Shown: positions 4,189 through 61,160 of the stretch, piece after piece
Layout of the letters: every line of letters starts with the position of its first letter
Position numbering within the stretch: position 1 is the first letter of the stretch
DNA from: Alphaproteobacteria bacterium
GTDB lineage: Bacteria > Pseudomonadota > Alphaproteobacteria > Rs-D84
Assembly (NCBI GenBank): GCA_024402765.1
Contig: JAKSTC010000001.1
Span: 3,170-67,169 of the forward strand
Reading direction: 5' to 3'
Length of the DNA stretch: 64,000 nucleotides
Notes under the pieces: model-generated
The model's database searches: none
What the model was told of the DNA's origin: nothing
Seen by the model: only the letters and a program-made list of their open reading frames with translations
Position numbers and translations under genes: made by a program

Positions 4189-5199
4189 CTAAGCCAGCAA
4201 ACTATCCAATAAATCGTTCATATTGTCCCTAATATCTTCACGATCCGCCGCCCAAACCAACCTACGCATAACAAACTTATGCACATCATCCATTGTTAAA
4301 TTTGGAATATGCGCACGTTTTACAACGCGTGCCCACGCAACACGCGGATCTGCCAAATGATTTTTACAACGACTCACAAAAATCCAATCACTATTTTCCT
4401 GGGGCAAATCTTGCAATAATACAGCAGTTCTATCAGACAACGGCCAATCTTTCCACATATAATGATTAAAATCTAAATCAGCCCAACACATAGAAAAAAT
4501 TTTTGATTTAGGTAAAAAGCTATACACCAACATTAAAAACGCGGCACGCACGATGAGATTTTCCTCCATATTAATTGCGTCAACCAGCGCACGCAAACCA
4601 TATTCTGTCAAAGGAGATGTCCGATATTTTTTTTCAATGCGTTTTAATTGTATCGCAGGATTTTTTTTGACGTATCCCATTTCAACGGCATATTTAAAAA
4701 TACTATTTAATAATTCCTGCATACGACCAGCGATTGTTTGTCCTTCTATATTTGCAATAACACTTTCTAAATCATCAACTTTAATTTCATCAACAAATTT
4801 ATCAAACAAATCTTTCAAATGCAGCTCTATAGAACGAACCAATTTAACTTCTGAATCTTCACTGCGACGAACACAGTTTTTAATATACAGGCCAACAAAT
4901 TCTTTAAATTTAATTTTCTTACGCCGCACAGGAACTTTTTTCAATGCGTTTTCCAATAACGCTGGCACCGCAGCACGCGCCATTTCAATATCAACCGTTG
5001 GATAGTTTCCTATGATAATTCGTTTATCATTACCATGCACCCTTTTACGAACAAAGAATGTTTTGACCCCACGTGATGTAACATACATACGCAGACGCGG
5101 TTCTGATAAATCTTGGACAACATCAAACCCCTTTGCTGGTGTGGGCAAATTATCTAAAATATACGAATTAAAGAAAAATTGATGTGCCATTTTATTCAC
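4189..5199 (-). CDS. P4-type integrase-like protein (Arm/DUF4102-like N-terminal domain), catalytic region apparently degenerate
   Basis: N-terminus [43 protein letters not shown] resembles the P4-integrase Arm domain. The C-terminal half has a tyrosine-recombinase-like layout, but no obvious HxxR box II and no terminal catalytic Tyr. The start overlaps the lepA stop by 8 nt. Confidence 0.5.
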
Positions 5200-8054: not shown

Positions 8055-8200
8055 TTTTGTCATTGCGTGTTATTTCGCACTTAGTCCCCCTTTGTCATTG
8101 CGAGGGAGTGTAACGACCGTGGCAATCCAGTCAATATGTCATAATCATTATTACTGGATTGCTTCGCTATGCTCGCAATGACAAAAGAGAGTAAGTTCAC
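8055..8200. repeat. MITE-like palindromic element(s) with inverted repeats tttgtcattgcgag / ctcgcaatgacaaa
   Basis: Inverted repeats at 8088-8101 and 8173-8186. Related sequence (actggattgcttcgct..gctcgcaatgacaaa) recurs at 59045-59085. Confidence 0.6.
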
Positions 8201-8262: not shown

Positions 8263-8991
8263 TTAGAAATTATACCGCAAACCGAAAGACAACGAATTAG
8301 ACAGCATAAAACCATTTTCAACTTTTGATGTGACAACCGTTCCATCACCAGGGCGCCAAACGCGCTCATGCGACGTTCCTGTAATTCCAGCCAAACGATA
8401 GCGAATATCAAAAGTCATATTATCATTTAACTGTGTGCTATACCCAAACATTACACCGCCCATAAATCCGAAACCAAACTTATTCCTGTTGCTTTCAACA
8501 AAATCAGTCCCCGCAGCATCTATTGTAATAATTGGCATTGCGGCACCGACACCAGCCCCAACATACAGACCGTTAATAAAATTGTAATAACCATTCACAG
8601 TTGCGTATGGGATTTGCACAGCATATTCGCCACCGCTATCTTTATCTGTCATACGGCCGAGATATCCCGCCTCAACATCTGCGCGCCAATTTGAATCAAA
8701 CCATTTACCAACAGATAAATTGCCACCAAACACAGGTTTAAAAGAATAATTTTCTGTTGTTTCATCTCCATATGGATAGCCATCTAAACTCGCAGAAGCA
8801 GTAGCCTTAAAATTCCAAAATGCCAATTCTGCGCGTAATGTCATATACCAATCACTGACTGGTTTATCTGCGTAATCATAAGTAACGACATAACCGCCAT
8901 CATTTGCATTTGATTTAACCATAGTTGGTGCGGCGATTGCCCCAGACGATAAAACCACAGCACCCGCGATAACAGAAACTAATTTTTTCAT
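8263..8991 (-). CDS. Outer-membrane beta-barrel protein (OmpA-like / Omp25 family)
   Basis: Signal peptide, alternating amphipathic strands, C-terminal ...GLRYNF ending in Phe. Confidence 0.6.
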   Translation of the reverse strand: MKKLVSVIAGAVVLSSGAIAAPTMVKSNANDGGYVVTYDYADKPVSDWYMTLRAELAFWNFKATASASLDGYPYGDETTENYSFKPVFGGNLSVGKWFDSNWRADVEAGYLGRMTDKDSGGEYAVQIPYATVNGYYNFINGLYVGAGVGAAMPIITIDAAGTDFVESNRNKFGFGFMGGVMFGYSTQLNDNMTFDIRYRLAGITGTSHERVWRPGDGTVVTSKVENGFMLSNSLSFGLRYNF

Positions 8992-9057
8992 TTTTTCCCC
9001 TTTATTTTGCTGTGAATATTATACCACTTTTCAGATATAAAAACAAATACTAAAGAC

Positions 9058-9092
9058 AAAAAAATCGTGCAGGTCATAGCACGATTTTCAGA
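9058..9092 (-). terminator. Rho-independent terminator
   Basis: aaatcgtgc-n8-gcacgattt followed by a T-run on the minus strand, downstream of the 9107 gene. Confidence 0.5.
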
Positions 9093-9106
9093 AACTTTTT
9101 TTAATA

Positions 9107-9625
9107 TTACTCAAGCCATATATTGGCAAGAGTTGACGAACTGGAACCACCACTGCGAACTTGCGAAATAGCAGTATTAGTTATCGTTGTTCCACTAATC
9201 GATATCCCCGTTCCTGCTGTATAGGTTGTATTGGTATCGGTATCAATATCATTTGCCCAAGCAACGGAACCATCAGATTGTTTTTTCAAAACCTGACCGG
9301 CACTACCGCCACTTGGATCTGTAATCTTTGTCCTAATTGCACTGGCAACCGCCTTACCACTCATACCACTGGAACTGGTTGCATCATAAGCATCAGTAAC
9401 CGTTGGTATTGTCAATGTAACATTTCCATTAAGTGGGGCAACATCATTAACTTTCGTTACTGTACCAGCATTTTTTGTAAAACCCCAACCACTTACAGTC
9501 TGTTCTGTAACAGCCGCGGGTATATTCAAAGAATTAACAACATCATCCACATATTTTGTCGACGCGATATCCGCAAAAGCGAAACCAGGAATAAATACCA
9601 AAGGCAAGATAAATATTTTTTTCAT
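9107..9625 (-). CDS. Secreted protein, phage-tail-fibre-like family (N-terminal IASTKYVDD motif)
   Basis: Start taken at MKKIFILPLVFIPGFAFA (signal peptide). T/S/G-rich. Shares its N-terminal motif with six other ORFs in the window. Confidence 0.55.
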   Translation of the reverse strand: MKKIFILPLVFIPGFAFADIASTKYVDDVVNSLNIPAAVTEQTVSGWGFTKNAGTVTKVNDVAPLNGNVTLTIPTVTDAYDATSSSGMSGKAVASAIRTKITDPSGGSAGQVLKKQSDGSVAWANDIDTDTNTTYTAGTGISISGTTITNTAISQVRSGGSSSSTLANIWLE

Positions 9626-9642
9626 ATTTATAATCCACTTAT

Positions 9643-9990
9643 TTAATTTGCAGTTGTACGCGTAATAAGTTCCCACTTTAATGTTATTTGATTATTATCA
9701 TCCTTGGTCGCGGTCAAAACATATGTTCCATCAGTGCCATCTGCCACCGCAGACAAATCCAAATTAGCCGTAGTTATCCCAGTTGTTGAATCTTTAACAA
9801 TCTTTATATTACTACTATTGGATAACTTATCCTGTTTTTTATTATCCAACGAATCGTATGCCAATTCGACATAGGTCCCCGTTGCCAATGTTGGCAAAGA
9901 CGCAGTTGGTGCCGGATCCGCCGCACGCGCAGAACCCACGAACATAGCCGCCGCCAAACATAAAACAGAAAAACCAGTTATATGTTTCAT
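9643..9990 (-). CDS. Small secreted protein of the same family (ATGTYVELAYDSLDNKKQDKL)
   Basis: Start at MKHITGFSVLCLAAAMFVGSARA (signal peptide), followed by the shared xYV...K.DK motif. Confidence 0.5.
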   Translation of the reverse strand: MKHITGFSVLCLAAAMFVGSARAADPAPTASLPTLATGTYVELAYDSLDNKKQDKLSNSSNIKIVKDSTTGITTANLDLSAVADGTDGTYVLTATKDDNNQITLKWELITRTTAN

Positions 9991-10066
9991 AAAACCCTTC
10001 CCATCGTGTCCACTATAATATGATAATAAATTTATCAATCACAGTGCAAGTGAAAATTTTATTTTT

Positions 10067-10100
10067 CCGACATCCGTGGGTGGGAACCCCCACCCACGGA
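10067..10100. terminator. Perfect 12-bp palindrome (tccgtgggtggg-aaccc-ccacccacgga), likely terminator of the 10113 gene
   Basis: Hairpin immediately 3' of the minus-strand gene. Confidence 0.5.
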
Positions 10101-10112
10101 TATCTGTTTTAG

Positions 10113-11243
10113 TTAAATACTAGATGGTACGTCCAAAGTACCGGAATTAAATGCGTTAATTATGCTAATTTTAACAGCTTTACCATCATAACCAACATAA
10201 CACAAATCACCCTCAGCTTCACCACATTCTAAATCTTCAGCATTTGCCTTTGCATCCAATGCAGCTGTCAAGCCAGCAATCTTGCTCTGTTCGATTGCTG
10301 CAGAACCTGATATATCTGCATTTACGATTGCACCACTTGTAATATCACCGGCTTCAACCTTATTTTTTGCTGCCAAATCACCTAAATCCGCTGAATCTGC
10401 TTTCTTTGCCAATTCTGTATTCATGTCAGTTGTGGTTGTGTAATTTGTCAAATCAGCAACATTTTTGTTGATATAACCAGCATCATTAGTAAAGGTGCTA
10501 ACATTAGTTGGTTTACCACTCAAATCACTATACGCACCACTTGTTGCGACAGCTGCTAAACCACTAACATAATCAGCAGACAATTTGTGTGTACTATCAA
10601 TCGTAGCCTGTTTACCTTCCAATGCTGTATCAACTTCAAGCGCTGAATATGTTTCTGCCTTTAAATATGTATCTGTCTTATCTGCTTTGCCAGATTCCAA
10701 CGCATCAATGTCAGCTTCTGCAGCAGTCAAACGAGTATTCAAACCACTTTCTACGCCTGTTGCACGTGTTACTTCAGCATCAATAGCTTCGGTATTATCT
10801 TCAACAGTTGCTGCCAAAGTTGTCAAAGAACCTGTTGCGCCACTAATCTCGTCAATAGCACTCTCGATTGCACTAGCAACCTCTTCTTGAGTATAAGTTT
10901 CTTCTTTTGTATAAACATCAGCACTATCCGCCTTTTCAGCAATAGTTTCAGCATAACCATCATAAGTGCTAACCTTATCCGATGTGATGCCGGAATTTAC
11001 TGCCGCCAGTTGGGCTGTGTTCAAAGCAGCCTGTTTTGCATCCCATGCGTCTTGTTTTGCCTTTGTAACGTGCAAATCTGTGTTGCTTGCGTGAGTTGTG
11101 ATAGCCTGAGCATTTGTGTTATACGCAGTATCGACGTATGTTTTTGTGGTCAAAGAACCCGCATCTGCAGTTGCAGCGTATGCGCCACCAGCCATTAATA
11201 TAGAAGCCATAAAGCCACTAAATACAATATTTCTTATTTTCAT
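10113..11243 (-). CDS. Secreted phage-tail-fibre-repeat protein
   Basis: Start at MKIRNIVFSGFMASILMAGGAYA (signal peptide, aaggaaaa SD). Repeats of the form DVYTKEETYTQEEV / KTDTYLKAETYSALEVD and ...SGAYSDLSGKPT resemble phage tail-fibre repeats. The K-rich N-terminal extension of the listed ORF is an A-rich intergenic artefact. Confidence 0.6.
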   Translation of the reverse strand: MKIRNIVFSGFMASILMAGGAYAATADAGSLTTKTYVDTAYNTNAQAITTHASNTDLHVTKAKQDAWDAKQAALNTAQLAAVNSGITSDKVSTYDGYAETIAEKADSADVYTKEETYTQEEVASAIESAIDEISGATGSLTTLAATVEDNTEAIDAEVTRATGVESGLNTRLTAAEADIDALESGKADKTDTYLKAETYSALEVDTALEGKQATIDSTHKLSADYVSGLAAVATSGAYSDLSGKPTNVSTFTNDAGYINKNVADLTNYTTTTDMNTELAKKADSADLGDLAAKNKVEAGDITSGAIVNADISGSAAIEQSKIAGLTAALDAKANAEDLECGEAEGDLCYVGYDGKAVKISIINAFNSGTLDVPSSI

Positions 11244-11358
11244 TTTTTTTCCTTTCTTTCGTTTGTTTGTTTTTTTGTTTATTTTTTTGTTTTTTCTTCG
11301 GTTTTTATTTACTTTCTTTTCTTCACTCTTTTTTTCAGTTTTTTTCAATTAAATCTTT

Positions 11359-12882
11359 TTACCAATTTTTATTGGTTATCGCCAAATCATACGGTACCGC
11401 TGTATTACCAACAATCAGACAATACTTATTATCGTCGCATGTCAAAGCATCCAATTCTGTCTTGGTCGCATAGGTGTCTGTAATAACATTACCAGATGCA
11501 TCCTGTGTTGCCTTGGTTGCGTTTGTTGCATTCGTGGCGTTTGTTGCATTTGTGGCGTTTGTTGCATTTGTGGCACTATCTGCACTTGTTGCTTTTGCAA
11601 CTTTTGTAGTTCCATCAACAATGTCTTCAATTGCTGCTGCATTGGTCGCAATTTGTGTTTTTTCTGATGCTGTAACAAACTTGTTCGTAGCAGATGTATC
11701 ATCAACCAAATCAGCACCCAACTTGCTATCAGTTGTAATTGCGTTCTGTTTGTTTGTCCATGCAGTTTTCTGAGACGATGTCACATGGATATCATTATTT
11801 GCAACGTGTGCATCATATCCATCAATCTTTGTCTTGGTCGCACCAGAATTCGCCGCCGCCAGTTGGGCTTCGGACAAATTAGCCTGTTTTGTGTTGCTTA
11901 AGCCTTGAATATCTTCTGTATGCTGATTTAAAGTCGTATTATACGCATCATATTTGCCAACTTTTTCTTCTGTGATACCAGAATTAGCTGCTGCCAATTG
12001 TTCGGTTGTCAAATTAGCCTGTTTACCATCCTCTAACGCCGCAATAGCGCTTGCGTTTGATGCAATTGCAGCCGTATTCGATGCAATAGCACTAACGTCG
12101 TCTTCTGTGATACCAGAATTCACCGCAGCCAGTTGATCTGTGTTCAAAGCAGCCTGTTTGTTATCCAACAATCCATCAACTTCTGTTTTTGTATAAACAT
12201 CGGTTGCATTAGCTTTGTTATTATTTAAGTTTGTGATATTTGTTTCGGCTGCGGTCATTCTTGCCTTCAAACCAGTATTCGCAGCATTAATGTCAGTATT
12301 TAAGCCTTCAATATCTTCCTCTAATGCGTCAGCAACAGCCTGTAAACCAGATATAGCCCCTCTAATATCCGCGTGAGCCTCTGGTGCCATATCATGATCA
12401 GAGATTTCAAGTGTAATAGCAGCTGTAACATCATCAGCACTTTGGAAATCAGCAACCGTAGTTTCCAATGTGTCCAACCTATCATCCAAATCCCCTATCG
12501 CAGCCTCAGCAGCAGAAGACTCGCCCTCTATATATGCCACAACATTCGCCTTACCCGATGGCAAAGTACCAACCAAGCCAGCCGCCGTACCTTTTGTTTC
12601 GTATGTATCCGCAGCATCCGCAGATTTCAAATATGTAGTGTTAATTGCATTACCATCGGCATCACCTGTTGCCTTGGCTGCAATCGTTGTTCCATTTGTG
12701 ATATTTGTAACCGCGGTACCAACCTTTGATGCCGCATCCGCAGCTGCCTGGCTAATCGCATAGTTAACACCCTGAATCACATACTGATCTGTTGCCAATG
12801 TTGGAGTGTCCGCAGCATATGCCGCACCAGCCATCAAAATGGATGCCATAAATCCACTAAATGCAATGTTTTTTACTTTCAT
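11359..12882 (-). CDS. Secreted phage-tail-fibre-repeat protein (paralog), with an (ATN)n tract
   Basis: Signal MKVKNIAFSGFMASILMAGAAYA. Repeated LAAVNSGITEDDV / LAAANSGITEEKV modules shared with the 10113 gene. C-terminal Cys pair. Confidence 0.6.
   Translation of the reverse strand: MKVKNIAFSGFMASILMAGAAYAADTPTLATDQYVIQGVNYAISQAAADAASKVGTAVTNITNGTTIAAKATGDADGNAINTTYLKSADAADTYETKGTAAGLVGTLPSGKANVVAYIEGESSAAEAAIGDLDDRLDTLETTVADFQSADDVTAAITLEISDHDMAPEAHADIRGAISGLQAVADALEEDIEGLNTDINAANTGLKARMTAAETNITNLNNNKANATDVYTKTEVDGLLDNKQAALNTDQLAAVNSGITEDDVSAIASNTAAIASNASAIAALEDGKQANLTTEQLAAANSGITEEKVGKYDAYNTTLNQHTEDIQGLSNTKQANLSEAQLAAANSGATKTKIDGYDAHVANNDIHVTSSQKTAWTNKQNAITTDSKLGADLVDDTSATNKFVTASEKTQIATNAAAIEDIVDGTTKVAKATSADSATNATNATNATNATNATNATKATQDASGNVITDTYATKTELDALTCDDNKYCLIVGNTAVPYDLAITNKNW
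11506..11590. repeat. Tandem 9/18-nt coding repeat (gcgtttgttgcattYgtg)n encoding ATNATNATN...
   Basis: Four to five near-perfect 18-nt copies. The unit is a multiple of 3, so length changes stay in frame. Confidence 0.7.
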
Positions 12883-12927
12883 TTTTTCCTTCCTTTCGTT
12901 TGTGCAGCTATCTGCTGTTTATTGTTA

Positions 12928-13863
12928 TTATTCTACATCCAGTTTATCTGGGTCAAATGCCCCATCATATACTGAAAAATCTGCAACATCTGTAATTTTG
13001 GTGTTCAGCTCATCAATTTTGCCACTAATCTCATCAATGGTATCATTAATAACCGTAACCCCAGATGATTTATTAAAGGCATCAGTAAACTTTGAATCAA
13101 ACTCTGACGATTTTAAATAACCACCCAAATCTGTTGTTTTCGCATAACCACTAAGTTCAATTTCACCTAATTCGACCGCCCCAGCAATTATATCCGCAAT
13201 ATTATCCGAAGTTACAAAATCACTCATGTCTGGAATATCAGACGACAACGCATAACCCGCCAATGGTGTTGTTGCCAAAGATTTATCTAATTCTTCACGC
13301 AATTTATCTTTTCTAAGATATATCTCATCTATTTCATCTTCTGTAATATAATCATCTATGAGCTGTTGTTTAGTAGCCCAATCGTCAATATCCGCCAATA
13401 AAGATTCTAAAGATTCTAATGCTTCCGCTGTCGTCTCGTCTGATAATTTAAGGTCAGCGATATCTTGCTTTAACAATTCAAACTTTTCTTCAACCTTTGC
13501 TTCAAATTCAGGAAGATTTATCGCCCCAGCCGTTGATGTCGATGTCGAAACCTTGTTGGAAACAACACCAGAACCAGATAAATACTTACCAATTGACATA
13601 CGTGTCCCAGTCCCAGCATTCCCAGATACAGTTCCCGTTGATCCAGATGTCGATGGGGATGTTGTCGCAGATGTTGTTGTCTTGGATACCTTTACCGCAG
13701 GAACGGCACGAACAGATCCCGCACGCGTCGCAGTACCCGACCCAACCGATGTTACACCATTATATGTCCCCGCACCACCCAATGTGCGAACAGACGATGC
13801 AGCAAAACCCAATGTTGGTAATGCCAATATTCCAGACATAATAATAGGTAAAAACTTATTCAA
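12928..13863 (-). CDS. Secreted Ser/Thr-rich acidic protein
   Basis: Signal peptide MNKFLPIIMSGILALPTLGFAASS, then a long S/T/G-rich low-complexity region and an acidic C-terminal half. Confidence 0.5.
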   Translation of the reverse strand: MNKFLPIIMSGILALPTLGFAASSVRTLGGAGTYNGVTSVGSGTATRAGSVRAVPAVKVSKTTTSATTSPSTSGSTGTVSGNAGTGTRMSIGKYLSGSGVVSNKVSTSTSTAGAINLPEFEAKVEEKFELLKQDIADLKLSDETTAEALESLESLLADIDDWATKQQLIDDYITEDEIDEIYLRKDKLREELDKSLATTPLAGYALSSDIPDMSDFVTSDNIADIIAGAVELGEIELSGYAKTTDLGGYLKSSEFDSKFTDAFNKSSGVTVINDTIDEISGKIDELNTKITDVADFSVYDGAFDPDKLDVE

Positions 13864-14200: not shown

Positions 14201-14386
14201 GTCATTCCGGCGCAGGCTAAGTAATTCATAGACATTTTTATTTTACAAAATTTATTGCAAATAAATTTTGTCATTGCGGACTTGGTCCGCAATAGGGTCT
14301 AGGAAATTAATACCGAATACTCGTAATAAAAACGAATACTGCACCCCAGGTCTTAAAGACCCTGTTCCGGCCTGCGCCGGAATGAC
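14201..14386. mobile_element. MITE with perfect 17-bp terminal inverted repeats (gtcattccggcgcaggc ... gcctgcgccggaatgac)
   Basis: TIRs at 14201-14217 and 14370-14386. Internal hairpins (attgcggac-ttg-gtccgcaat, aggtcttaaagacct). A near-identical interior recurs at 58866-58965. Confidence 0.7.
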
Positions 14387-27428: not shown

Positions 27429-27866
27429 TTATTCGCCATACACAATACTGACCGTATTGGTATTCCCGGGCATATTGCAATCACCCTTGGCACCATCAAT
27501 CGATTCTGTCCAGGCTTTGGTTGTTAATGTTTTACAGTCTGATTCTGATAATCCATCAATTGTAACAACGAATTGACGCGAATTGGATGGATTTACAGAC
27601 AAAGTATAATTCCCACCATATGGGTTTTTATTTTTTATACCCAATGCGGTAAAGATTGTGGCATTATCAATATTGGAAAAATCATCGTATTCACCCAATA
27701 ATTGGCGCACGCCAACAACCATCTGTAAAACATCATCGTTTACAGTACTTTGTTTTTGCATACGCATTGCAGATGAAATCATACCGATTGCCCCAACGGT
27801 AATAACACCCATAATTGCGAGTACACCCAACATTTCAATCATAGAACGACCTGATTCTTGTTTCAT
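27429..27866 (-). CDS. Type IV pilin / pseudopilin (prepilin-type N-terminal methylation domain)
   Basis: G|RSMIEMLGVLAIMGVI class III signal with Glu at +5. 145 aa. Confidence 0.6.
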   Translation of the reverse strand: MKQESGRSMIEMLGVLAIMGVITVGAIGMISSAMRMQKQSTVNDDVLQMVVGVRQLLGEYDDFSNIDNATIFTALGIKNKNPYGGNYTLSVNPSNSRQFVVTIDGLSESDCKTLTTKAWTESIDGAKGDCNMPGNTNTVSIVYGE

Positions 27867-33265: not shown

Positions 33266-34645
33266 TTATTGTAATCCGACCTGGAACTCATCGCCCCATG
33301 TTGCGACACTTTGACCACCAATCGAACATTTCAAATCTTCAAATCCATCTTCGACTTGATTCTTTTTGATAACGGTACTAGTTACAACACCACCAACGGT
33401 TCCCAACACTACACCTGCAATAGAATCAGATGCCAAACGCGCAGTATTAAACTTACCCTCTTCATCTTTCCATTCTGATGCCTTTTTTGCATATTTAGAT
33501 TCTAAAACTTTGATATCCTCATAAACTTTATCAATTTCTGCATTTTCGTATTGTGTGGAATCAATCTCAGGGTCAACGACAGGTGCAGTACCACCGTCTT
33601 TCTCAGGTTCAACGCCAGGTGCAGTACCACCGTCTTTTTCTTTACAATACGGCGTGTCTACACCACTATAAACAAACTCACCACCATTGTTACATACACA
33701 TTTGTTACTTTGCCATTTTGCAACACTTGACGGCACATCACAACATGCCTTACCCTCTGAGGTTGAACGTGACGCTTTACAAGTTGCCACAGGCACAGGA
33801 TCTGGAGTAACATTCCCATCTTTCTTACTACACGTCCCTGCACTGCCATCATACTTATAATCACTTTCACAAGCTTGCGCTTTACATACTAATTTTTGTC
33901 CATCTTCACATATAGCTTTGTAAGAAGTCCCATGTTCATCAGTTACTTTAACACTTTTGTTCTTACAATCTTCTTTAGAATAAGAGCCGTTCCCCATGTT
34001 ACCGACAGGTATATTTTCTCCCCACGGTGACTTACACACCTTAGGTTCAGTGGTAACACCACACTCGCTTAATTCAACCTCTTCCCATCTATCGTCATAA
34101 AACCCTGCCTTAGCAATACACTTATAACACTTTTGTTTATTAATTGTTTGACCCTTAAACACATGACCTGCCGGCATAAGTTGTTTTGTATTATCTGAAC
34201 AATATTGATTATCGCATTCCCATACTTCACCCCGTAAATCCTTATAAACCCTATCAGAAAATAAATTTATACCCCTATTAATATCTTCCCACGCTTCTAC
34301 TGAATACAAAAATTCATTATCTTTTGGTCCCTGAGCCGCTGTACGAGTATAGCTAACTGCGTGAATTCCACACCCTGTTCCAACATAATCATCAATGGCT
34401 TTTTCAACAACCGCAACAGGGGCCCATAATGGAGCAGTAGCATCAACTGCCACATAACCCGCCCCTTTTGCCACCACACCAGCAGCAACAACACCAGCCC
34501 CAGCCACAGTACCAACTGCAGTACCAACCCCAGAACCAATTGTAGAACCAACATTCTGCGCACCTTGAATAATTTTTTTAGATTCTATCCCCAGCGCATT
34601 TCCTGCAACAATCAATCCAATTAATACAAATAAAAATTTTTTCAT
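33266..34645 (-). CDS. Secreted cysteine-rich protein with internal tandem repeat (EKDGGTAPGVEP x2)
   Basis: Signal peptide, about 30 Cys residues, and two 36-nt direct repeats at 33565-33640. Confidence 0.5.
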   Translation of the reverse strand: MKKFLFVLIGLIVAGNALGIESKKIIQGAQNVGSTIGSGVGTAVGTVAGAGVVAAGVVAKGAGYVAVDATAPLWAPVAVVEKAIDDYVGTGCGIHAVSYTRTAAQGPKDNEFLYSVEAWEDINRGINLFSDRVYKDLRGEVWECDNQYCSDNTKQLMPAGHVFKGQTINKQKCYKCIAKAGFYDDRWEEVELSECGVTTEPKVCKSPWGENIPVGNMGNGSYSKEDCKNKSVKVTDEHGTSYKAICEDGQKLVCKAQACESDYKYDGSAGTCSKKDGNVTPDPVPVATCKASRSTSEGKACCDVPSSVAKWQSNKCVCNNGGEFVYSGVDTPYCKEKDGGTAPGVEPEKDGGTAPVVDPEIDSTQYENAEIDKVYEDIKVLESKYAKKASEWKDEEGKFNTARLASDSIAGVVLGTVGGVVTSTVIKKNQVEDGFEDLKCSIGGQSVATWGDEFQVGLQ

Positions 34646-39316: not shown

Positions 39317-40867
39317 TTAATTTAATGGTGCACCCCAGTGTTGCTGAATCGAACGTTCTGAATCCATCGGGCTTATCAAAACCTGTGGTGTCAAGATAAC
39401 AACCAACACATCACGTTCCGATTCGGATTCACGCGAACCACCCAATGCCATAAAGTCTGCATCACCTAAACCATACCGTGTATCGTTATTCTTTTGTTTT
39501 TCAAACCCAGACACAACCAACATCTGGCCAGATTCCATAATAACTTCTTGCATAAAACTACGTTCTTCAACTTCTGGTAATTGCAACTGAACCGCACCAA
39601 TTGTTTGTGTTGACATCTTTATCAATTCACGAACAGACATTCTGAATAACAATAAAATCTTACCATTTTCCAAAACATTCGGTAACAACTGCATTGAAAA
39701 ACCGGTTTCCAAATCTGCCTGGTCAACGGTTGACGACTCGACCGTTGTAAAGTTACGCGATTCGAAACGTTTAATATAACCCGTAGTCGTTGTGTTATTA
39801 ACAGGCGCAACACGATTGTTACGTGTTGTAACACCAACATTTGTAACCAATGACACCTTGCCCTGCTTTGCCAATGCCTTAATTAATGCAGAACTGCCCG
39901 CGACATGTTCCAGCGACCCCGTTGCATCCTCTAACACTGCAACATTTAATGATGTGGCACCCGCAGACGCCATATTGTTACCCGGTGTCGAAGCAATAGA
40001 TAATCCAGATGCGGCATTAATAGCAGCCGTCAAATTCAAACCAAACCCAGAATTATTAGCAATAGAAACCTGTAACACCTTTACATCAATTGTCACAAGT
40101 TGTGACAAACGTTTGTTTTGTTTTTCAATATATTCACCAATACGTGCCAATATAGATGGCGATGCCGTAACGGTAATTGTTCCTAAACTGCGCGACACAG
40201 TAAAGTTAGCATTATCAGAACGGCCAATTATTGCAGAAATCGCATTTTCTATCTCTGTCCATTCCTTTAATGTAGATTCCAACGACACTTGATTATTGTC
40301 GTCTGTTTGAACTGCTGTTTGATATGAAATATCTGTACCCAACGCATACAGGGTAAATGTCCGCGTTTCTGTTTCATAAAAAACAATCGTATTCTTATCA
40401 TAATACCACAATAAATCTAAATCTGTGGCAACCTGAGACAACAGACCAGACAATTTACCAGTATATGCAATATTCATCGTCTTTTTTAATTTTTCTGTAT
40501 TAACCTGACTATCAATCTTAACCGGTATTCCTGTTACACTATTGATATTATTCGCCAACACCTGAATTGTTACCGGACTATCCATCAATATGGTAACACC
40601 AGTGTCCGTTTCAAATTGAGATGGCAGACTATTACGATGTTCCAAAACCGTAGATTTGTTTCCCAACCAAACCCCTTCGGACATAGAAACCGTATCACCA
40701 CTGGCAACCTTAGCACGTGGATTTTTTGCCATTTCGAACGCATCGTATGCATTAACAAAATCTTGATCTACGGTTGATGCCACCCGCGCAGAATTACGCG
40801 TAGCACAACCATTAAGTCCGCCACATACCGCCAAACATACAACAAATAATTTTAAGACATTTCTCAT
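39317..40867 (-). CDS. Secretin-family outer-membrane lipoprotein (type IVb pilus PilN/TcpC/BfpB-like)
   Basis: Lipobox LNGC. C-terminal secretin domain motifs (VTIDVKVLQVS..., ETGFSMQLLPNVLENGKILLLFRMSVRE). Confidence 0.55.
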   Translation of the reverse strand: MRNVLKLFVVCLAVCGGLNGCATRNSARVASTVDQDFVNAYDAFEMAKNPRAKVASGDTVSMSEGVWLGNKSTVLEHRNSLPSQFETDTGVTILMDSPVTIQVLANNINSVTGIPVKIDSQVNTEKLKKTMNIAYTGKLSGLLSQVATDLDLLWYYDKNTIVFYETETRTFTLYALGTDISYQTAVQTDDNNQVSLESTLKEWTEIENAISAIIGRSDNANFTVSRSLGTITVTASPSILARIGEYIEKQNKRLSQLVTIDVKVLQVSIANNSGFGLNLTAAINAASGLSIASTPGNNMASAGATSLNVAVLEDATGSLEHVAGSSALIKALAKQGKVSLVTNVGVTTRNNRVAPVNNTTTTGYIKRFESRNFTTVESSTVDQADLETGFSMQLLPNVLENGKILLLFRMSVRELIKMSTQTIGAVQLQLPEVEERSFMQEVIMESGQMLVVSGFEKQKNNDTRYGLGDADFMALGGSRESESERDVLVVILTPQVLISPMDSERSIQQHWGAPLN

Positions 40868-40893
40868 TTTAATCTCCTACTGGGGTTAAAAGA

Positions 40894-41718
40894 TTATTCT
40901 TCTGATGTTGAAATAACCAGAACACGATTACCCTTATAAAACTTTGCATACGGAATTGGTGTCGCACGACCAAAATTACGAACCAAAGCAGATGCAACAT
41001 CCACAAAGCGTCCCTTAAACACTGCGCTTGCCTCTATCGGATATTCACGGGCGGTTGTCCAAACCAAATCCCAACCTTCCTTGTCGCACCACGCCTGCAA
41101 TACTTCGCGTAATGTTTGTCCATTTGCAACAACCCATGAACGAACCTGGTCACCCAAAAGCATACCATCCTGGGGTTCAGATGATGCATTAACACCTATC
41201 TCGTTTTCACTAGGAACCTCTTCGGAAATACCAGCCTGTGCCAAATAAGAACCCCTATTACAATTTTTACGACCACTGCGTGACATTGCCAAAACCGCAC
41301 CACCATCATCTTCTAAAACCTCACGCTTTAACAAAGGCATTTCATATCCAAACGCACATTCATCATCAAAGCCAACCGGAATCTGATTTCCGTGCAACAT
41401 ATTTGCCCCCCCAGACCAACCAGCAAAATCACCATGCATTGGAATATCAAAACTATTTTCGACGATTAAATCTGCGCCATCTTTGGACACAATACGAATA
41501 TTATCACTGTTCGTACAACCCTTGTCCCCACACATGACATCAACGTCCGCGTCTGATCCCGCAATTGGCCAAGCCGGTACAAAAGCATTCGATTCTTGAA
41601 CCTGTTGTCCAGAATCAACAAAAACCTCAGACGTGACAACCTCTGGTAAATAGCCATCAGCAAAGCAATAACCCGCCGCTGTCAAAGACATTGCGATAAT
41701 AAATATTTTACGGAACAT
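40894..41718 (-). CDS. TcpQ/PilL-like pilus biogenesis protein
   Basis: Signal peptide. C-terminal GQTLREVLQAWCDKEGWDLVWTTAREYPIEASAVFKGRFVDVASALV...YKGNRVLVIS matches the TcpQ C-terminal domain pattern. Lies directly upstream of the secretin gene. Confidence 0.5.
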   Translation of the reverse strand: MFRKIFIIAMSLTAAGYCFADGYLPEVVTSEVFVDSGQQVQESNAFVPAWPIAGSDADVDVMCGDKGCTNSDNIRIVSKDGADLIVENSFDIPMHGDFAGWSGGANMLHGNQIPVGFDDECAFGYEMPLLKREVLEDDGGAVLAMSRSGRKNCNRGSYLAQAGISEEVPSENEIGVNASSEPQDGMLLGDQVRSWVVANGQTLREVLQAWCDKEGWDLVWTTAREYPIEASAVFKGRFVDVASALVRNFGRATPIPYAKFYKGNRVLVISTSEE

Positions 41719-51153: not shown

Positions 51154-52461
51154 ATGACAAAGCCACAAAAATTCTTTATCCAAACTTTTGGATGTCAAAT
51201 GAATGTTTATGACGGTTGGCGAATCGCTGCTATGTTAAAACACCATGGTTTAACAGAAACAGCTTCTATACCTGATGCTGATATAATTATTCTTAATACC
51301 TGTGCGGTGCGTGAAAAGGCAACGAACAAGGTTTATTCTGCCCTGGGGCGCATACGTCAGGCAAAAAAGCCATCTGCCCTATTCGGTATTGTTGGTTGTG
51401 TTGCACGTGAATCAGGGGCAGATGCATTTAAGCGAATTCCCGAATTAAATTTTGTCCTTGGACCACAGAGTTATCATAAATTGCCCCAGATTTTATCTGA
51501 TCCGGACACTAAATTATTTAACATTGATTTGGGCGGTCTGGAAAAATTTGATAGCCTGCCCCAAATGGAAAAATCACCATTGGTATCATATATTCCAATT
51601 CAAGAAGGGTGTAATCATTGTTGCACATACTGCATTGTTCCATACACACGTGGTCGTGAAATTTCGCGCGATTTTAATCGCGTTATGGCCGACACAATTC
51701 ATGCCGCAAAAACTGGCGCGGTTGAAATATGCTTTTTGGGTCAAAATGTAAATGGATATAAATATACAGATGAAAATGGTAAAACATACCGTTTGTCTGA
51801 TTTAATACGCGAGACAGCAAAAATCCCAGAAATCATGCGTATACGCTTTACATCCAGTTATCCCACAGAAATGACAGATGACTTGATTGATATGTTTAGA
51901 ACAGAACAAAAATTACTACCATTTCTAAATATGCCAATTCAAAGTGGTTCACCAAATGTGTTAAAAAGGATGAACCGTCCGTATGATTTAGAACAATACT
52001 TAACTATTGTTAATAAATTACGTGCTGCGCGTCCAGACATTCAAATATCAAGTGATTTTATTGTTGGATTCCCTGGCGAATCTGATTCTGATTTTGAACA
52101 AACAATGCAAATTGCGAACACAATAAAATATATTAATTCATATTCTTTTAAGTATTCACCCCGCCCACATACCGCGGCAGCATTAATGCCAGACCAAGTT
52201 CCAGAAAACATTAAAAGTGAACGTCTATTAAAACTTGATTCCAACCTAAATGAAATCCAACGCGCATTTAATTTATCTTGTGTTGATAAAACATTAACTT
52301 GTTTATATGAAGGTATTGATAAGACAAGCAAACATCTGATATACCGCACACCATATATGCAACAATGTATTGTTGAATTCATCGAAAACGCGCCAACCAT
52401 GGCAAATATAAAAATCACATCCGCAAACAAGGCATGTCTGCGTGGTGAATTTGTTGATTAA
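51154..52461 (+). CDS. miaB: tRNA-i6A37 methylthiotransferase MiaB
   Basis: FGCQMNVYDG N-terminal MTTase motif and radical-SAM CxxxCxxC (EGCNHCCTYC). About 435 aa. Confidence 0.8.
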   Translation: MTKPQKFFIQTFGCQMNVYDGWRIAAMLKHHGLTETASIPDADIIILNTCAVREKATNKVYSALGRIRQAKKPSALFGIVGCVARESGADAFKRIPELNFVLGPQSYHKLPQILSDPDTKLFNIDLGGLEKFDSLPQMEKSPLVSYIPIQEGCNHCCTYCIVPYTRGREISRDFNRVMADTIHAAKTGAVEICFLGQNVNGYKYTDENGKTYRLSDLIRETAKIPEIMRIRFTSSYPTEMTDDLIDMFRTEQKLLPFLNMPIQSGSPNVLKRMNRPYDLEQYLTIVNKLRAARPDIQISSDFIVGFPGESDSDFEQTMQIANTIKYINSYSFKYSPRPHTAAALMPDQVPENIKSERLLKLDSNLNEIQRAFNLSCVDKTLTCLYEGIDKTSKHLIYRTPYMQQCIVEFIENAPTMANIKITSANKACLRGEFVD

Positions 52462-53996
52462 AAGACCATTTGTAAATTAATTGATGCCTTACCCGACAGG
52501 CCTAATTCCGTTTGTATTACCCCCAACGAAATATTACCACCTGCGCCATCTACCTCTGACCAGGCATCAAAATTAAACGCTGCATCAATATTTCCAAATG
52601 TATTTACACCTGCGCGCAAATTATAGCTATATTTCATACTATCCAAAACAAAAGAATAACCACCATCAAATGCACCACGTGCAAAGAAATCATTTTTATT
52701 ATTTTGTAATATGTGCAACCTTTCCATACCAACATTAACAAATGGCGCAACATACCAGCCGTCATTTCCAATATTAAAATGCTTTCCCAAATCAACAAAA
52801 CCATACAAACTATTTCCTGTTGGATTATGTGTAATCTCATTACCATTTAACAACGGTCCCGTATCAAAAGAATCAATATTACCACCCAAACCACCACGTA
52901 CAAAAACAATATCACCAACATAGTCTATACGCATGTTTCCGCCGTATACACCAGAATCATATTTATTTAATCCATCATCAAAATGTATTTTATAACCATA
53001 TCCAGATGCACCGACATATAAATTATCAGTAACACTATATTTTGCCGCCAGCCGGCCACCAATTGTATTACCGTGATTTGAAAAAATATATATTGGCTCA
53101 GCCGATATTCCAACCCCAATTCGATTTGCAGAACCAGATGTCATTTCAAGCATATTTATTTCATGCACAGACCGCATTAATAATTCTGGATTTAACCGAA
53201 CAGATTTATTTAATATATCCATAACACGATTCATATCATTTTCTGAATCTAACTTACTTATTAAATCATTATCAGAACCCGTTTCGCGCAAATAATTTAG
53301 AAACATACCACGGGAATCTCTAAACACATGTTTATAATTTATCGTCCGCGCACGCGTTAAATACACATTATTACCAACCAAACTAGCCGTAACCGCATAT
53401 AACGGATTATTCGTATCAGATTCAAAATGTAATTTATTATATTCTGCATTATTAACATTATATAATACAGGATTGCCATTTGTTTTAAAGTCACTTGATA
53501 CAACAATCCAAACATCGCCATTAACTTTAATAGATGTATTTTGCAATTTAGTTGCATTATAACCACCAGAAATTGTTAATTCTGTTGCCTGTCCGACACT
53601 AGCTAAGTTCAATTCTTTTACAGAATACATTTTATCTGCAATCTGATTCAGAGAAAACGCACCACCAATAAATGTTGCATCAAACAGCCCATTCCCACTA
53701 ACATTTAAATGTGTAATATCCGCAGGATTTTCAACAACCTGGGTTAACCCGCCACCAGCAGCAACATTTATTTCACCACTGATGGTTCCACTATTTTGGA
53801 TAGACGCAAATACCCCACTTACAACATCAAAGTAAGGAACATTTATAACACGAGTATTAACATAAGTATTTCCTTCTAAATTACAATTACCAGTTGCACA
53901 GTTGGTATTAATATAGGCAGTCAAATCTGTTGAAGCAAATACATCACAGGATATAAAAGTAACTATGCAATAAAAACAAATATTTTTAATCTTCAT
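52458..53996 (-). CDS. Autotransporter-like outer-membrane protein
   Basis: Start at MKIKNICFYCIVTFISCDVFA. N/G/S-rich passenger and a C-terminal beta-barrel ending ...NLQMVF. Confidence 0.5.
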   Translation of the reverse strand: MKIKNICFYCIVTFISCDVFASTDLTAYINTNCATGNCNLEGNTYVNTRVINVPYFDVVSGVFASIQNSGTISGEINVAAGGGLTQVVENPADITHLNVSGNGLFDATFIGGAFSLNQIADKMYSVKELNLASVGQATELTISGGYNATKLQNTSIKVNGDVWIVVSSDFKTNGNPVLYNVNNAEYNKLHFESDTNNPLYAVTASLVGNNVYLTRARTINYKHVFRDSRGMFLNYLRETGSDNDLISKLDSENDMNRVMDILNKSVRLNPELLMRSVHEINMLEMTSGSANRIGVGISAEPIYIFSNHGNTIGGRLAAKYSVTDNLYVGASGYGYKIHFDDGLNKYDSGVYGGNMRIDYVGDIVFVRGGLGGNIDSFDTGPLLNGNEITHNPTGNSLYGFVDLGKHFNIGNDGWYVAPFVNVGMERLHILQNNKNDFFARGAFDGGYSFVLDSMKYSYNLRAGVNTFGNIDAAFNFDAWSEVDGAGGNISLGVIQTELGLSGKASINLQMVF

Positions 53997-54152
53997 AGAA
54001 TCAACATTAGCACACAAGAAAATATTCTTAAAGCACAAAATGAATAAAATCATAGGCATCCATACCTGTATAAATTTCTAAAAACCTTTGATAAAATCAT
54101 CATTGTTGACATGAAAAACACACATAAACAACACAACAAAGGAGAAAAACAA

Positions 54153-59118: not shown

Positions 59119-60084
59119 TTATTCAACCTCTGGGCCGGCAATAAATGAACCAGTGCCTGAATTCGTAAAGAATGTTTTCGTCACAGTATCATACATACCA
59201 ATTACACCATCACTATTGCGTTTCGCAGGGATAAGCGACATTGAATTATCTATTTTCAAATAAGCAATTCTTGTGCCATTTATAGATTGATAATCTGAAC
59301 TCTGCACAGCAAACACCCCAAAACTTGAGAAACTTGTTTCAGGCCCTCTTTTTATATCTTTTGTGGATACTCCATCACTTAAAGAAGTTCCATTTAGTGT
59401 TATTGTTCGCCAACCTGGTATAACACCATTAAAATACACAATACTACTACCAGTCCATAAACCATCATAAGAGCTCTGTGCATGAGCAAACAAAGAAAGC
59501 CTAGCACCACCTTGTTCTTGTCCATAATATGCTCCAAAAATAGCTTTAGAATTATCTATTTCACCAGGTATATAGTATTTAACTTCAAAATCACTTTCAG
59601 ATGATAGGACGTTAGCTAATCTAACAACAATTCTTGCTTTTCCATCCGTTTCAATATATTCTAACTGGGTATATTCTGCGGGCAGGATACTGGTCGCATA
59701 TCGCTCAAACACATATTCGTTCGTTGTGGCGTTCCATATCATCATATGTTTACCACTTGTCGGTAATGTCCCCAGGTTTAATTTCGTTATATCTATCATC
59801 CCTGCCAAATCTGCATTCGTTACCGCACCATCCGCCAAATGTATCGTTTCTATTGAATTATCCGCAAATAAATCTGTCCCAACCGTCGTTGCAACCACAT
59901 TCCCAGAATTATCCGTCTGTAATACCATATTTTGTGCATAATTGGCATTGTTTGCCTTTTTATCTATTTTTGCCTGAATATTATCACGCATTTCATTTAC
60001 ATATTCACTGGATGCAATATTCGCAACACAGGGTGATATAATTATAAATAAAAACGATATTACACTAAACAGATATCTAAACAT
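59119..60084 (-). CDS. Secreted phage-tail-fibre-like protein (N-terminal IASSEYVNE...KIDKK motif)
   Basis: Signal peptide. Shares its N-terminal motif and a ...ITKLNLGTLPTSGKHMMIWNATTNEYVFE block with the 60114 gene (...INKLNLPTKCASGSCMLIYNADTGNFVWE). Confidence 0.55.
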   Translation of the reverse strand: MFRYLFSVISFLFIIISPCVANIASSEYVNEMRDNIQAKIDKKANNANYAQNMVLQTDNSGNVVATTVGTDLFADNSIETIHLADGAVTNADLAGMIDITKLNLGTLPTSGKHMMIWNATTNEYVFERYATSILPAEYTQLEYIETDGKARIVVRLANVLSSESDFEVKYYIPGEIDNSKAIFGAYYGQEQGGARLSLFAHAQSSYDGLWTGSSIVYFNGVIPGWRTITLNGTSLSDGVSTKDIKRGPETSFSSFGVFAVQSSDYQSINGTRIAYLKIDNSMSLIPAKRNSDGVIGMYDTVTKTFFTNSGTGSFIAGPEVE

Positions 60085-60113: not shown

Positions 60114-60548
60114 CTAATTACCACTAACGCCACCTGTTGGCGCAGAATCGCCATTACGACCAATATTTTCCCATACAAAATTGCCAGTATCCGCATTGTA
60201 TATCAGCATGCATGACCCGGATGCACATTTTGTTGGTAAATTCAATTTATTTATTCCAACGCCATTCGCTATTTTAGTGTTTGTGACATTTGCATCTTTT
60301 ATCTTATCAGAACTGACCGCGTTATTCGCAATCATCCCCGATGCAATTTGACCCGTCTGCACCGCACCATTTGTGCCGGTCGTCACCAGTGCCTTGTTTG
60401 TCCCAGATGTAAATTTATTATCCAATTTTCCAGAAATATTATCATTCAACCCCTGTTCAACCTGACCCACGTATGCTGTGGACGCAATACCCGCAAATGA
60501 TGGCGTTGCAATTAATGCCAACATAACAATAGTTATAATGCCCTTCAT
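60114..60548 (-). CDS. Secreted phage-tail-fibre-like protein (short paralog)
   Basis: Signal MKGIITIVMLALIATPSFAGIASTAYVGQVEQ. Same family. Confidence 0.55.
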   Translation of the reverse strand: MKGIITIVMLALIATPSFAGIASTAYVGQVEQGLNDNISGKLDNKFTSGTNKALVTTGTNGAVQTGQIASGMIANNAVSSDKIKDANVTNTKIANGVGINKLNLPTKCASGSCMLIYNADTGNFVWENIGRNGDSAPTGGVSGN

Positions 60549-61047: not shown

Positions 61048-61160
61048 TTTTCGCCCGTCTGCGCTGCACTTCGTTTGCTCCGTCGCGGCATCCGTTTCGC
61101 GTGATTAAAATCACATCGCCCCGTCCCGATTAATCGCGACGGAGCGAAGCGAAGACGGAT

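Follow-up and report, generated by a model that had tools for sequence, protein, structure and literature searches.

Seven minus-strand genes in a 64-kb stretch of chromosome from a gut Rs-D84/Candidatus (Ca.) Enterousia-type metagenome-assembled genome (MAG) probably encode Sec-exported trimeric fibre adhesins of that lineage. The stretch (positions 3,170 to 67,169 of contig JAKSTC010000001.1, hereafter the window) belongs to a reduced genome and is core chromosome around dnaA, dnaN and gyrB. Five of the genes (B to F) form cluster 1, placed between rbfA and ftsEX beside a gene for an outer-membrane protein (OMP; gene A). The other two (G and H) form cluster 2, flanked on one side by an M16 peptidase gene and two small helix-turn-helix (HTH) genes and on the other by a GIY-YIG gene, tRNA-Lys, nlpD and tatC. 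The export signal and the stalk of these proteins are cellular, and their tip and repeat modules are common to phage proteins that have no signal peptide. Between near-identical strains, moreover, a cassette is replaced on a constant stalk. This is an undescribed family of exported mosaic fibres, specific to Rs-D84/Ca. Enterousia, whose architecture across Enterousia joins a constant module of signal peptide, neck, stalk and Cys hairpin to interchangeable tips.

Predicted export signals, neck motifs and stalks

All seven minus-strand open reading frames (ORFs) that a sequence-only reading of the window had picked out are present, and a Shine-Dalgarno-like sequence lies 5-10 nucleotides (nt) 5' of the chosen start of each. 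In the NCBI annotation of this 'Alphaproteobacteria bacterium' MAG the fibre genes stand as MJ170_00070-00095 and MJ170_00350/00355, all called hypothetical proteins. Their features are as follows.

Gene B, 9107..9625, minus strand: 172 amino acids (aa); signal peptide; neck DIASTKYVDDVV at 9548-9568, then short phage-fibre-like mini-modules; no Cys pair
Gene C, 9643..9990, minus strand: 115 aa; signal peptide; neck LATGTYV at 9868-9888; KKQDKL; terminal hairpin-like motif without Cys
Gene D, 10113..11243, minus strand: 376 aa, starting at ATG 11243 as in the NCBI annotation and not at an upstream TTG; signal peptide; neck LTTKTYV at 11133-11153
Gene D, 10914-11051, minus strand: QLAAVNSGIT module
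Gene D, 10878-10919 (DVYTKEETYTQEE) and 10629-10679 (DTYLKAETY), minus strand: putative beta-layer hexads
Gene D, 10470-10559, minus strand: Phage_fiber_2-like VATSGAYSDLSGKPT
Gene D, 10188-10226, minus strand: Cys hairpin C340/C348
Gene E, 11359..12882, minus strand: 507 aa; signal peptide; neck LATDQYV at 12778-12798; helical stalk
Gene E, 11758-12165, minus strand: three 45-aa KQxxLxxxQLAAxNSGxT repeats
Gene E, 11506-11597: in-frame 9-bp repeat, 10 copies (18 bp, 3.8 copies), encoding (NAT)n just ahead of the C-terminal Cys hairpin
Gene E, 11407-11439, minus strand: Cys hairpin C482/C488
Gene F, 12928..13863, minus strand: 311 aa; signal peptide; Ser/Thr-rich linker; acidic region with YAKTTD/YLKSSE hexad-like motifs; no neck
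Gene G, 59119..60084, minus strand: 321 aa; signal peptide; neck IASSEYV at 59998-60018; short stalk of about 100 aa
Gene G, 59122-59697 (residues 130-321), minus strand: LamG/ConA-like lectin tip
Gene H, 60114..60548, minus strand: 144 aa, a minimal family member; signal peptide; neck IASTAYV at 60468-60488; 'I-x-dgaVt-x-aKI' repeats; Cys hairpin CASGSC at 60198-60227

Each protein opens with an n-region that bears positive charge; a hydrophobic h-region and a cleavage site of the AxA type come after it (for example MKKIFILPLVFIPGFAFA followed by DIAS, or MKVKNIAFSGFMASILMAGAAYA followed by ADTP), which agrees, at the level of such a heuristic, with the earlier claim that all seven start with a classical signal peptide. 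At 2-18 residues from the predicted cleavage site, six of the seven (not F) carry the motif (I/L/T)(A/T)(S/T)xxYV. A six-frame search of the whole 64 kb for [ILVT][AT][STG]xx[YFW]V behind a hydrophobic stretch returned these six proteins and one look-alike, the TcpQ-like gene at 41637. The N-terminal part of the shared motif described earlier is therefore found in exactly the six proteins named, but its second part, K.DK, is clear only in C and G; gene H has KLDNK at that position, and relatives strongly conserve KQDKIP.

The motif resembles a known structural element. Hartmann et al. (2016, PMC4786415) describe a beta-to-coiled-coil transition of the trimeric prophage tail fibre HylP1 (2C3F; sequence AATKAYVDKAISELKKL, or DPTANDHAATKAYVDKAISELKKL) as a 'TAA short neck homolog' (TAA, trimeric autotransporter adhesin), and give [aliphatic]-A-T-K-[polar]-[DE] as the general beta-layer consensus. 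The N-terminal motifs of the family (DIASTKYVDDVV, NIASSEYVNEM and LTTKTYVDTAY, with ATSKAFVDTAV in relatives) fit the short-neck pattern, and in AlphaFold2 (AF2) models the helix begins directly past the neck (G, residue 26; D, residue 34).

Protein D is nearly all helical in AF2, and its helix 119-197 has a predicted local distance difference test score (pLDDT) above 95. Hydrophobic periodicity of 3.4-3.7 residues, judged against shuffles, gave p=0.0025 for this helix (with a 3.5-residue period) and p=0.008 for residues 130-225 of E. The repeats quoted in the sequence-only reading are present in D (DVYTKEETYTQEEV at residues 109-122, KTDTYLKAETYSALEVD at 189-205 and SGAYSDLSGKPT at 235-246). 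For KADSADVYTKEETYTQEE of D, alignments were obtained with the stalk of NadA (4cjd, E=0.027) and with GCN4 fusion constructs that carry beta-layers (7oaa/7oac). As short patterns, the hexads VYTKEE, TYTQEE and TYLKAE of D and VYTKTE of E match the published beta-layer pattern [aliphatic]-x-T-K-x-[DE]; in HylP1 '...KADKETVYTKAESKQE' represents coiled-coil-to-coiled-coil beta-layers (Hartmann et al. 2016, PMC4786415). Given these matches to NadA, GCN4 and HylP1, and helices that start after the neck, we infer that the repeats previously likened to those of phage tail fibres are beta-layer inserts of an alpha/beta coiled coil, a grammar common to phage fibres and trimeric autotransporters. Structure prediction had been suggested as a check for a trimeric beta-helix or coiled coil; it favors an alpha-helical coiled coil with beta-layer inserts but not a beta-helix.

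Other repeats tie the stalks together. E has three copies of the 45-aa KQxxLxxxQLAAxNSGIT repeat, which is also visible in the DNA, and D has one; the 'I-x-dgaVt-x-aKI' repeat is common to H, G and D. Length may vary at the NAT repeat of E. The stalk is closed by a C-x(4-12)-C beta-hairpin; in D and E, which have no large tip domain, no more than about 25-30 residues follow it, with two very short strands there in AF2. The statement that the proteins end in Cys pairs holds for D, E and H (3/7) but not for B, C, F and G. A PDB sequence search with E gave chance coiled-coil matches only.

Pairwise similarity is graded (D to E, E=1e-26; G to H, 3e-18; B to H, 4e-4; D to G, 2e-4; C to D, 2e-3). 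The description of the genes as seven paralogs was thus partly right: paralogy is real, and strong for D/E and G/H, but it is loose elsewhere, and F has no neck motif. Gene F, the first gene of cluster 1, shows weak similarity to the other six and had no relatives among about 500 fetched proteins; its membership of the family is probable but unproven. A 330-aa Gly-rich protein without a signal peptide, encoded in a related locus (L002, 11718-12710) directly downstream of the fibre gene P0016, was considered and found unrelated to F.

Exchangeable tips and their phage relatives

The tip of G is a jelly-roll beta-sandwich that can be superimposed on LamG/LNS/pentraxin domains and that matches concanavalin A (ConA)-like phage proteins. 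The module opens with LPxGYTxLEYIESTGTQYIDTG and closes with IPAKRNSDGxxGMYDTVxxTFFTNxGTGxF. For its behavior between strains, the window was compared with GCA_045627945.1, whose housekeeping neighbors are 98-99.6% identical to those of the window. The G ortholog of this strain keeps 85-92% identity in the stalk and 85% in the last 40 alignment columns, and the core of the tip falls to 22-32%. In the DNA the replaced segment is the following:

Replaced cassette in G (tip-domain core), 59144..59662, minus strand: 40-62% nt identity to GCA_045627945.1; flanks 96-100%

The E ortholog of the same strain is likewise mosaic (N-terminus 100/92/92%, middle 12-25%, C-terminus 60-90%), and the F ortholog beside ftsE in locus L003 is 88.5% identical. 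The tip of G is closer (68% identical) to that of P0139, a stalk-less paralog in another MAG, than to that of this ortholog, and MJ170_04425, from the same MAG as G, is 92-95% identical to G over signal peptide and stalk and diverges beyond them. This MAG also holds a further paralog, MJ170_04800.

The family is much larger than the window. With G as query 252 proteins were found. There are 229 G-tip relatives in GTDB species genomes, and the 78 best of these loci are spread over 32 assemblies; the label is Enterousia, Alphaproteobacteria or proteobacterium in 29 of these, though several MAG labels may reflect mis-binning. One MAG, with a genome of roughly 0.9 Mb, holds at least 10 tip loci, the highest number seen; counts per genome are lower bounds. 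A profile of the short stalk retrieved 202 proteins, the best 120 of which are mostly about 230-270 aa long. They are laid out as a signal peptide, then 'AGEN(V/I)PTSKSYVD..KQDxIPAN..QVLTNTGTAGEYGTKGIYD...MNAGVQNAIDSEFQC...C(L/W)L', then a hypervariable tip of about 140 aa; the Cys hairpin is found in 120/120 and the neck in 111/120. These stalk-profile relatives, the proteins found with G and the GTDB tip loci bear out the idea of an expanded family. A Pfam scan of 50 short-stalk relatives returned no family. A phmmer search with H against 1.84e9 representative proteins mostly hit one repeat motif in giant proteins and gave no new full-length members, and a PDB search with a second tip type (A5) gave only a non-significant match (4d0q, E=0.35) resembling a carbohydrate-binding module.

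Whatever their tip type, 98/120 of the short-stalk proteins (P0253-P0372) end at the extreme C-terminus in a tag, [NP]-[ILV]-Y-[LVIM]-P-x-G-[NE], that is seen in relatives only and not in the window's own proteins. Among relatives of G it accompanies 19/63 proteins with a signal peptide versus 3/56 without, and it may be a sorting or docking signal. One protein, from locus L054, joins the neck, a Phage_fiber_2-like motif, the Cys hairpin and a LamG tip, which indicates that proteins of the D/E type and of the G type form one mosaic family.

The LamG tip also occurs, in one or two copies, in L069 (5570-6874) and L073 (5767-7578), which come from MAGs labelled Ca. Onthoplasma and Christensenella sp. 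UBA4626. There it stands behind a '...AWFTDSS' N-terminus, which we take to resemble export signals of the SipW/TasA type found in Firmicutes. The lineage of Onthoplasma, UBA1242, is an unrelated group within the Firmicutes and the other genome-reduced gut lineage proposed to be partner-dependent.

The relation to phages lies in modules. Neither Pfam model put forward as a check for tail-fibre or collar domains (PF03406, PF07484) matched any of the eight proteins A to H at E<=1. PHROG tail-fibre matches are weak (H to phrog_28766, E=3.3e-6; G, 1.3e-4; C to phrog_4209, 1.6e-4; D, none). Over the 30 aa of the VATSGAYSDLSGKPT region (residues 229-258), D shares 80% identity with proteins annotated as tail fibres of Synechococcus phages. 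PF03406, PF11133 or PF07484 is present in relatives without a signal peptide, and those of D fall in PHROG tail and tail-fibre families. The view that these genes hold phage tail-fibre modules is therefore right in that short modules are common to phage tail fibres and tail proteins, but the Pfam models named for it fail.

The LamG tip of G has 102 relatives on IMG/VR viral contigs, 27-34% identical over the whole domain, and 8 viral contigs carry the second tip type; a tblastn search with the G tip of 50,697 cultured-phage records found nothing. One tip relative (L088) sits downstream of tape-measure, Dit and tail-protein genes. Another viral locus (L089, 5577-12407) encodes a fibre-like protein of 2276 aa that lacks an N-terminal signal peptide, adjoins tail-fibre genes and holds the LamG tip module; segments of it are 39-52% identical to B, neck region included, with residues 17-78 of B at 52%. 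Export signals and stalks are distributed very differently. A signal peptide precedes 48/67 tip ORFs in Enterousia loci versus 2/58 in viral loci, the stalk hidden Markov model matches 36/87 tip ORFs in genome loci versus 1/95 in viral loci, and a pattern search of 2.9 million IMG/VR viral contigs gave no confirmed relative of the common Enterousia stalk of about 100 aa. One viral-labelled contig alone (L143, 91-1050; 13 kb, IMG/VR) has a complete gene for signal peptide, stalk and LamG tip; the gene lies at its edge, with capsid- and terminase-like ORFs next to it. This contig may be the border of an Enterousia prophage, or a phage carrying an exported fibre.

Within the window the setting is cellular. 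The neighbors of the two clusters are lepA, rbfA, ftsEX, tolB, the M16 peptidase gene, nlpD and tatC, and no phage structural gene (capsid, tail, baseplate or terminase) lies near either cluster. These neighbors are core chromosomal genes and not a prophage, as the sequence-only reading had proposed in setting the genes outside any phage structural operon.

Proposed display of the fibres and alternative readings

Genomes of Rs-D84/Enterousia are smaller than 1 Mb, without amino-acid, nucleotide and lipid biosynthesis and respiration, and the bacteria have been proposed as obligate symbionts or parasites of other cells, dependent on a partner (PMC12306168). LepA, GyrB and DnaN of the window are 86-92% identical to proteins of rumen and faecal MAG contigs labelled Ca. 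Enterousia or 'uncultured proteobacterium', and the great majority of fibre relatives are from MAGs of this kind. The earlier description of the source as an intracellular bacterium is not borne out, given what is proposed for this lineage; the source is a genome-reduced gut MAG of the Rs-D84/Ca. Enterousia type.

Our view of function is drawn from architecture, evolutionary behavior and analogy. Sec export would be followed by cleavage of the signal peptide, and very close to its new N-terminus the mature chain would carry a 'short-neck' beta-layer motif, [aliphatic]-A/T-S/T-(K)-x-Y-V-D, which would nucleate a parallel, most probably trimeric, alpha/beta coiled coil. The stalk would be long in D and E, where NSGIT repeats and YTKxE beta-layer hexads would break up heptad or hendecad helices, and short in G, in H and in the common Enterousia type of about 100 aa. 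A disulfide-clasped beta-hairpin, consistent with an oxidising extracytoplasmic location, would usually end the stalk, and many members would carry on it an exchangeable C-terminal beta-sandwich tip such as the lectin-like domain of G. The fibres would act as adhesins or receptor-binding fibres that tie a probably partner-dependent bacterium to glycans or surface structures that belong to other cells or to the gut. Cassettes for tips related to those of phages would be swapped by recombination between paralogs and lineages, and specificity would be diversified in this way.

Several points weigh against this picture. The trimeric state, passage across the outer membrane, surface retention, adhesive function and ligand are all inferred, and the signal peptides were called by eye and with a crude heuristic. 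The AF2 models are of monomers only; that of D has a predicted template-modelling score of 0.32, and the N-terminal stalk of G has low confidence (pLDDT 40-60). Beta-layers were assigned from short pattern matches and one marginal E-value (0.027), and neither the stalk profile (A4) nor a consensus neck peptide found a match among PDB sequences. No fibre protein has a significant Pfam or NCBIfam match, and in B, C and F no tip domain could be recognised. The fibre proteins show no lipobox, no membrane anchor and no domain known to retain proteins at the surface, so that they could be released or periplasmic. A possible link to a secretin, discussed below, consists of gene adjacency in three relatives, and the window's own site holds only rpsT.

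It is tempting to go further and to picture Rs-D84 as cell-attached parasites or epibionts of gut microbes, with the fibres as a host-recognition arsenal whose constant stalk is particular to the lineage and absent from phages, whose tips are traded with, or taken from, phages that infect these target organisms, and whose undescribed export and docking would run through the neck, the N-[ILV]-Y-[LVI]-P-x-G-[NE] tag and the secretin, convergent with UBA1242. We offer this as a tentative extension that has the odds against it. If it were true, the tip repertoire would predict the partner organism, and the LamG tip on a different export signal in UBA1242 (L069, L073) would represent a convergent strategy of gut 'ultrasmall' bacteria.

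The missing anchor invites another explanation, namely that the proteins are secreted without being held at the surface, as soluble trimeric lectin-like fibres or fibres borne on outer-membrane vesicles, and serve as agglutinins, as scavenging or bridging factors, or as decoys that mask phage receptors. The proteins have no anchor, lipobox or beta-barrel domain, the mature N-terminus lies only 2-18 residues ahead of the coiled coil, and the tips are related to phage receptor-binding domains. However, the conserved N-terminal stalk and the C-terminal tag (98/120 Enterousia proteins) suggest docking or sorting, and the analogues with a constant base and variable tip (mosaic adhesive trimer fibres of Bdellovibrio, and phage fibres) are anchored. 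Release in this form seems unlikely to us.

A route across the outer membrane might be provided by the only conduit candidate seen in the window, a lipoprotein secretin (LNGC lipobox) encoded with the TcpQ-like gene at 39317-41718. The fibres would then be substrates or tip partners of a machine of the type IVb pilus or type II secretion kind, with the mature N-terminus as signal. TcpF of Vibrio cholerae and CofJ of enterotoxigenic Escherichia coli offer a comparison for such a route. A type IV pilin-like gene at 27429-27866 (prepilin motif G|RSMIE, C-terminal Cys pair) fits this scheme, as do same-strand fibre genes directly 3' of the secretin, between it and plsY, in L002, L044 and L047. On the other hand, the window has no pilus ATPase or platform genes, fibre genes lie at many other loci too, and adjacency near oriC may denote a recombination hot spot and not an operon; fibre genes also stand at a rearrangement breakpoint in L062. 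Type IV pili, moreover, are not credited to Rs-D84 in the published survey (PMC12306168). Such a machine would be compatible with surface-displayed adhesins, and we hold its involvement to be quite doubtful.

The position of cluster 1 raises a third question, that of its relation to the adjacent OMP. The gene in question is the following:

Gene A, 8263..8991, minus strand: small beta-barrel OMP, 242 aa, C-terminal ...LRYNF; a backbone neighbor and not a member of the fibre family

It has no Pfam match, and its full-length alignment to the Rickettsia Adr family (NF052636, Rick_Adr) scores E=8.8e-6 and 25.5 bits, where the cutoff is 210. The adjacency that led the sequence-only reading to speak of fibre genes clustered with an OMP gene is real, but it is not specific to fibres: in four relatives (L008, L027, L049 and L062) homologs of A lie directly beside ftsE with no fibre genes between. 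This indicates that the block B to F was inserted into a conserved OMP-ftsE junction and that the OMP belongs to the backbone. A role for the OMP as dedicated partner of the fibres was rejected on this synteny.

One could still envision D, E and F as coiled-coil spacers of the periplasm or envelope, or, like Lpp or SlpA/OmpM, as tethers that join the outer membrane to peptidoglycan, tied to the neighboring OMP. Besides the adjacency, the absence of a large tip domain in D and E accords with this, and so does the occurrence of trimeric coiled coils with beta-layers in connectors of outer membrane and cell wall (PMC9388160). We judge it improbable, since the OMP-ftsE pair is conserved without fibres, the modules of D and E are common to phage tail fibres, and D and E vary strongly between near-identical strains, which is unexpected for a structural tether. 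Pfam shows no peptidoglycan-binding or barrel domain, and stalks of 300-480 residues would presumably exceed the width of the periplasm.

That the genes are components or remnants of a prophage, tailocin or gene-transfer-agent-like element, and thus true tail fibres on a phage-derived structure, is very improbable in spite of the modules common to phage tail fibres, an integrase-like fragment (4189-5199), the tRNA-Lys with duplicated 3'-end repeats near G/H and the L143 gene beside capsid- and terminase-like ORFs, because all seven proteins have Sec signal peptides (2/58 among phage-borne relatives), core genes and no capsid, tail, baseplate or terminase genes adjoin the clusters, the integrase-like gene is itself backbone, conserved in L062, and the common stalk of about 100 aa has no relative in IMG/VR. 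A prophage reading of the clusters was rejected on genomic context and signal peptides.

The surroundings of the fibre genes hold a few further elements.

Two tandem 75-aa Cro/C1-type HTH genes, 58025-58252 and 58447-58674, minus strand: 3' of G on its strand; 73% nt identity
Intergenic repeat upstream of F, 14241..14370: matches 58865-58970 (93%, 81%) and, inverted, 59005-39 (97%), downstream of G
Repeat downstream of A, 8142-8185: matches 59035-59078 (89%)

Homologs of the HTH genes lie immediately beside fibre genes in L011, L023, L029 and L171, and the tandem pair are candidate regulators of fibre expression. No shared upstream promoter or operator motif was found among the five transcription-unit leaders, and a promoter scan stayed at the level of shuffled sequence. 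The short repeats, which resemble miniature inverted-repeat transposable elements or repetitive extragenic palindromes, are 81-97% identical and partly inverted, and the borders of the two fibre clusters are their only sites in the window. A role in recombination or regulation is possible.

Some features of the window stand apart from the fibres. In the integrase-like ORF (4189-5199, minus strand), which overlaps the start of lepA, only arm-binding and central domains were detected. A 62% identical copy is kept in L062, so the ORF is probably a backbone or degenerate gene and no marker of a recent island. A 166-nt unit is perfectly duplicated in tandem at 61160-61491, next to tRNA-Lys (61492-61567, minus strand). 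Each copy opens with 20 nt equal to the 3' end of tRNA-Lys, a degenerate copy is found at 60787-60806, and most of one 166-nt copy is missing from the close relative GCA_045627945.1. The duplication could represent scars left at att sites by an integrative element; it could also be an assembly artefact. At 52458-54059 (minus strand) a 533-aa protein with a signal-peptide-like N-terminus and the C-terminal end ...NLQMVF resembles an autotransporter or large OMP and has no Pfam or NCBIfam match. The gene at 33266-34645 (minus strand) encodes a secreted, Cys-rich protein of 459 aa with a predicted C-terminal membrane anchor and no Pfam match; it contains a 36-nt tandem repeat (33565-33636), and its syntenic counterpart in L002 encodes 603 aa.

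Comparison with known fibre systems

Rs-D84/Ca. Enterousia are widespread, uncultured, sub-megabase gut bacteria. A fibre family that takes up more than 1% of the genome, is exported, has the build of an adhesin fibre and changes its tips between otherwise 99% identical strains is the most obvious molecular handle on their partnership, and tip specificities could identify the partner and guide co-culture. The stalk module defined here has no relative in Pfam, NCBIfam or PDB. Should the fibres be released or periplasmic, the finding would shrink to an uncharacterised family of variable secreted proteins.

Phage receptor-binding proteins of the LamG/ConA-like jelly-roll type have the same fold as the tip of G, but they are without a signal peptide and the Enterousia stalk. 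The prophage hyaluronidase HylP1 (2C3F), a trimeric tail fibre akin to other alpha/beta coiled-coil phage fibres (PMC4786415), has in common with the family the short motifs that in HylP1 form a short-neck beta-layer ('AATKAYVDKAI') and hexad beta-layers ('KADKETVYTKAESKQE'). In contrast, it has no signal peptide, is assembled on a virion and carries an enzymatic beta-helix, and its match to the Enterousia fibres is limited to motifs. Trimeric autotransporters (type Vc, such as NadA and YadA) likewise have a Sec signal peptide and mosaic repeats, and their coiled-coil stalk with neck and beta-layer motifs and YTKxE hexads would have its putative counterpart here. However, the C-terminal YadA-type barrel by which they are anchored is missing here (PF03895 gave no Pfam match), and the orientation is probably reversed, the conserved end being N-terminal and the variable binding end C-terminal.

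By analogy, the family would work most like the mosaic adhesive trimer (MAT) fibres of Bdellovibrio bacteriovorus (Caulton et al. 2024, PMC10769870). Both are multigene, signal-peptide-bearing and phage-fibre-like, in a bacterium that depends on other cells, and both combine a conserved N-terminal end with diversified, apparently swappable C-terminal tips of lectin-type folds; TNF-like, C-type lectin and beta-sandwich domains are among the MAT tips (PMC10769870). The differences are nonetheless substantial. In MATs a beta-rich domain about 130 aa long, which is conserved, follows the signal peptide, whereas here the neck motif lies 2-18 residues past the cleavage site and a predicted helix comes next. 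MATs are beta-prism/beta-helix fibres of 600-1000+ aa and often carry an S74 chaperone-protease; the proteins described here have predicted alpha-helical stalks, a length of 115-560 aa and no S74 domain. Surface display of MATs has been demonstrated (PMC10769870), and that of the Enterousia fibres is proposed here. Because the MAT N-terminal domain, the TAA barrel and the phage context are all missing, we place the genes in an exported mosaic fibre family of their own. With no sequence relationship detected between it and the MATs, this family would provide a second example of a cell-dependent bacterium that carries phage-type receptor-binding modules on exported fibres.

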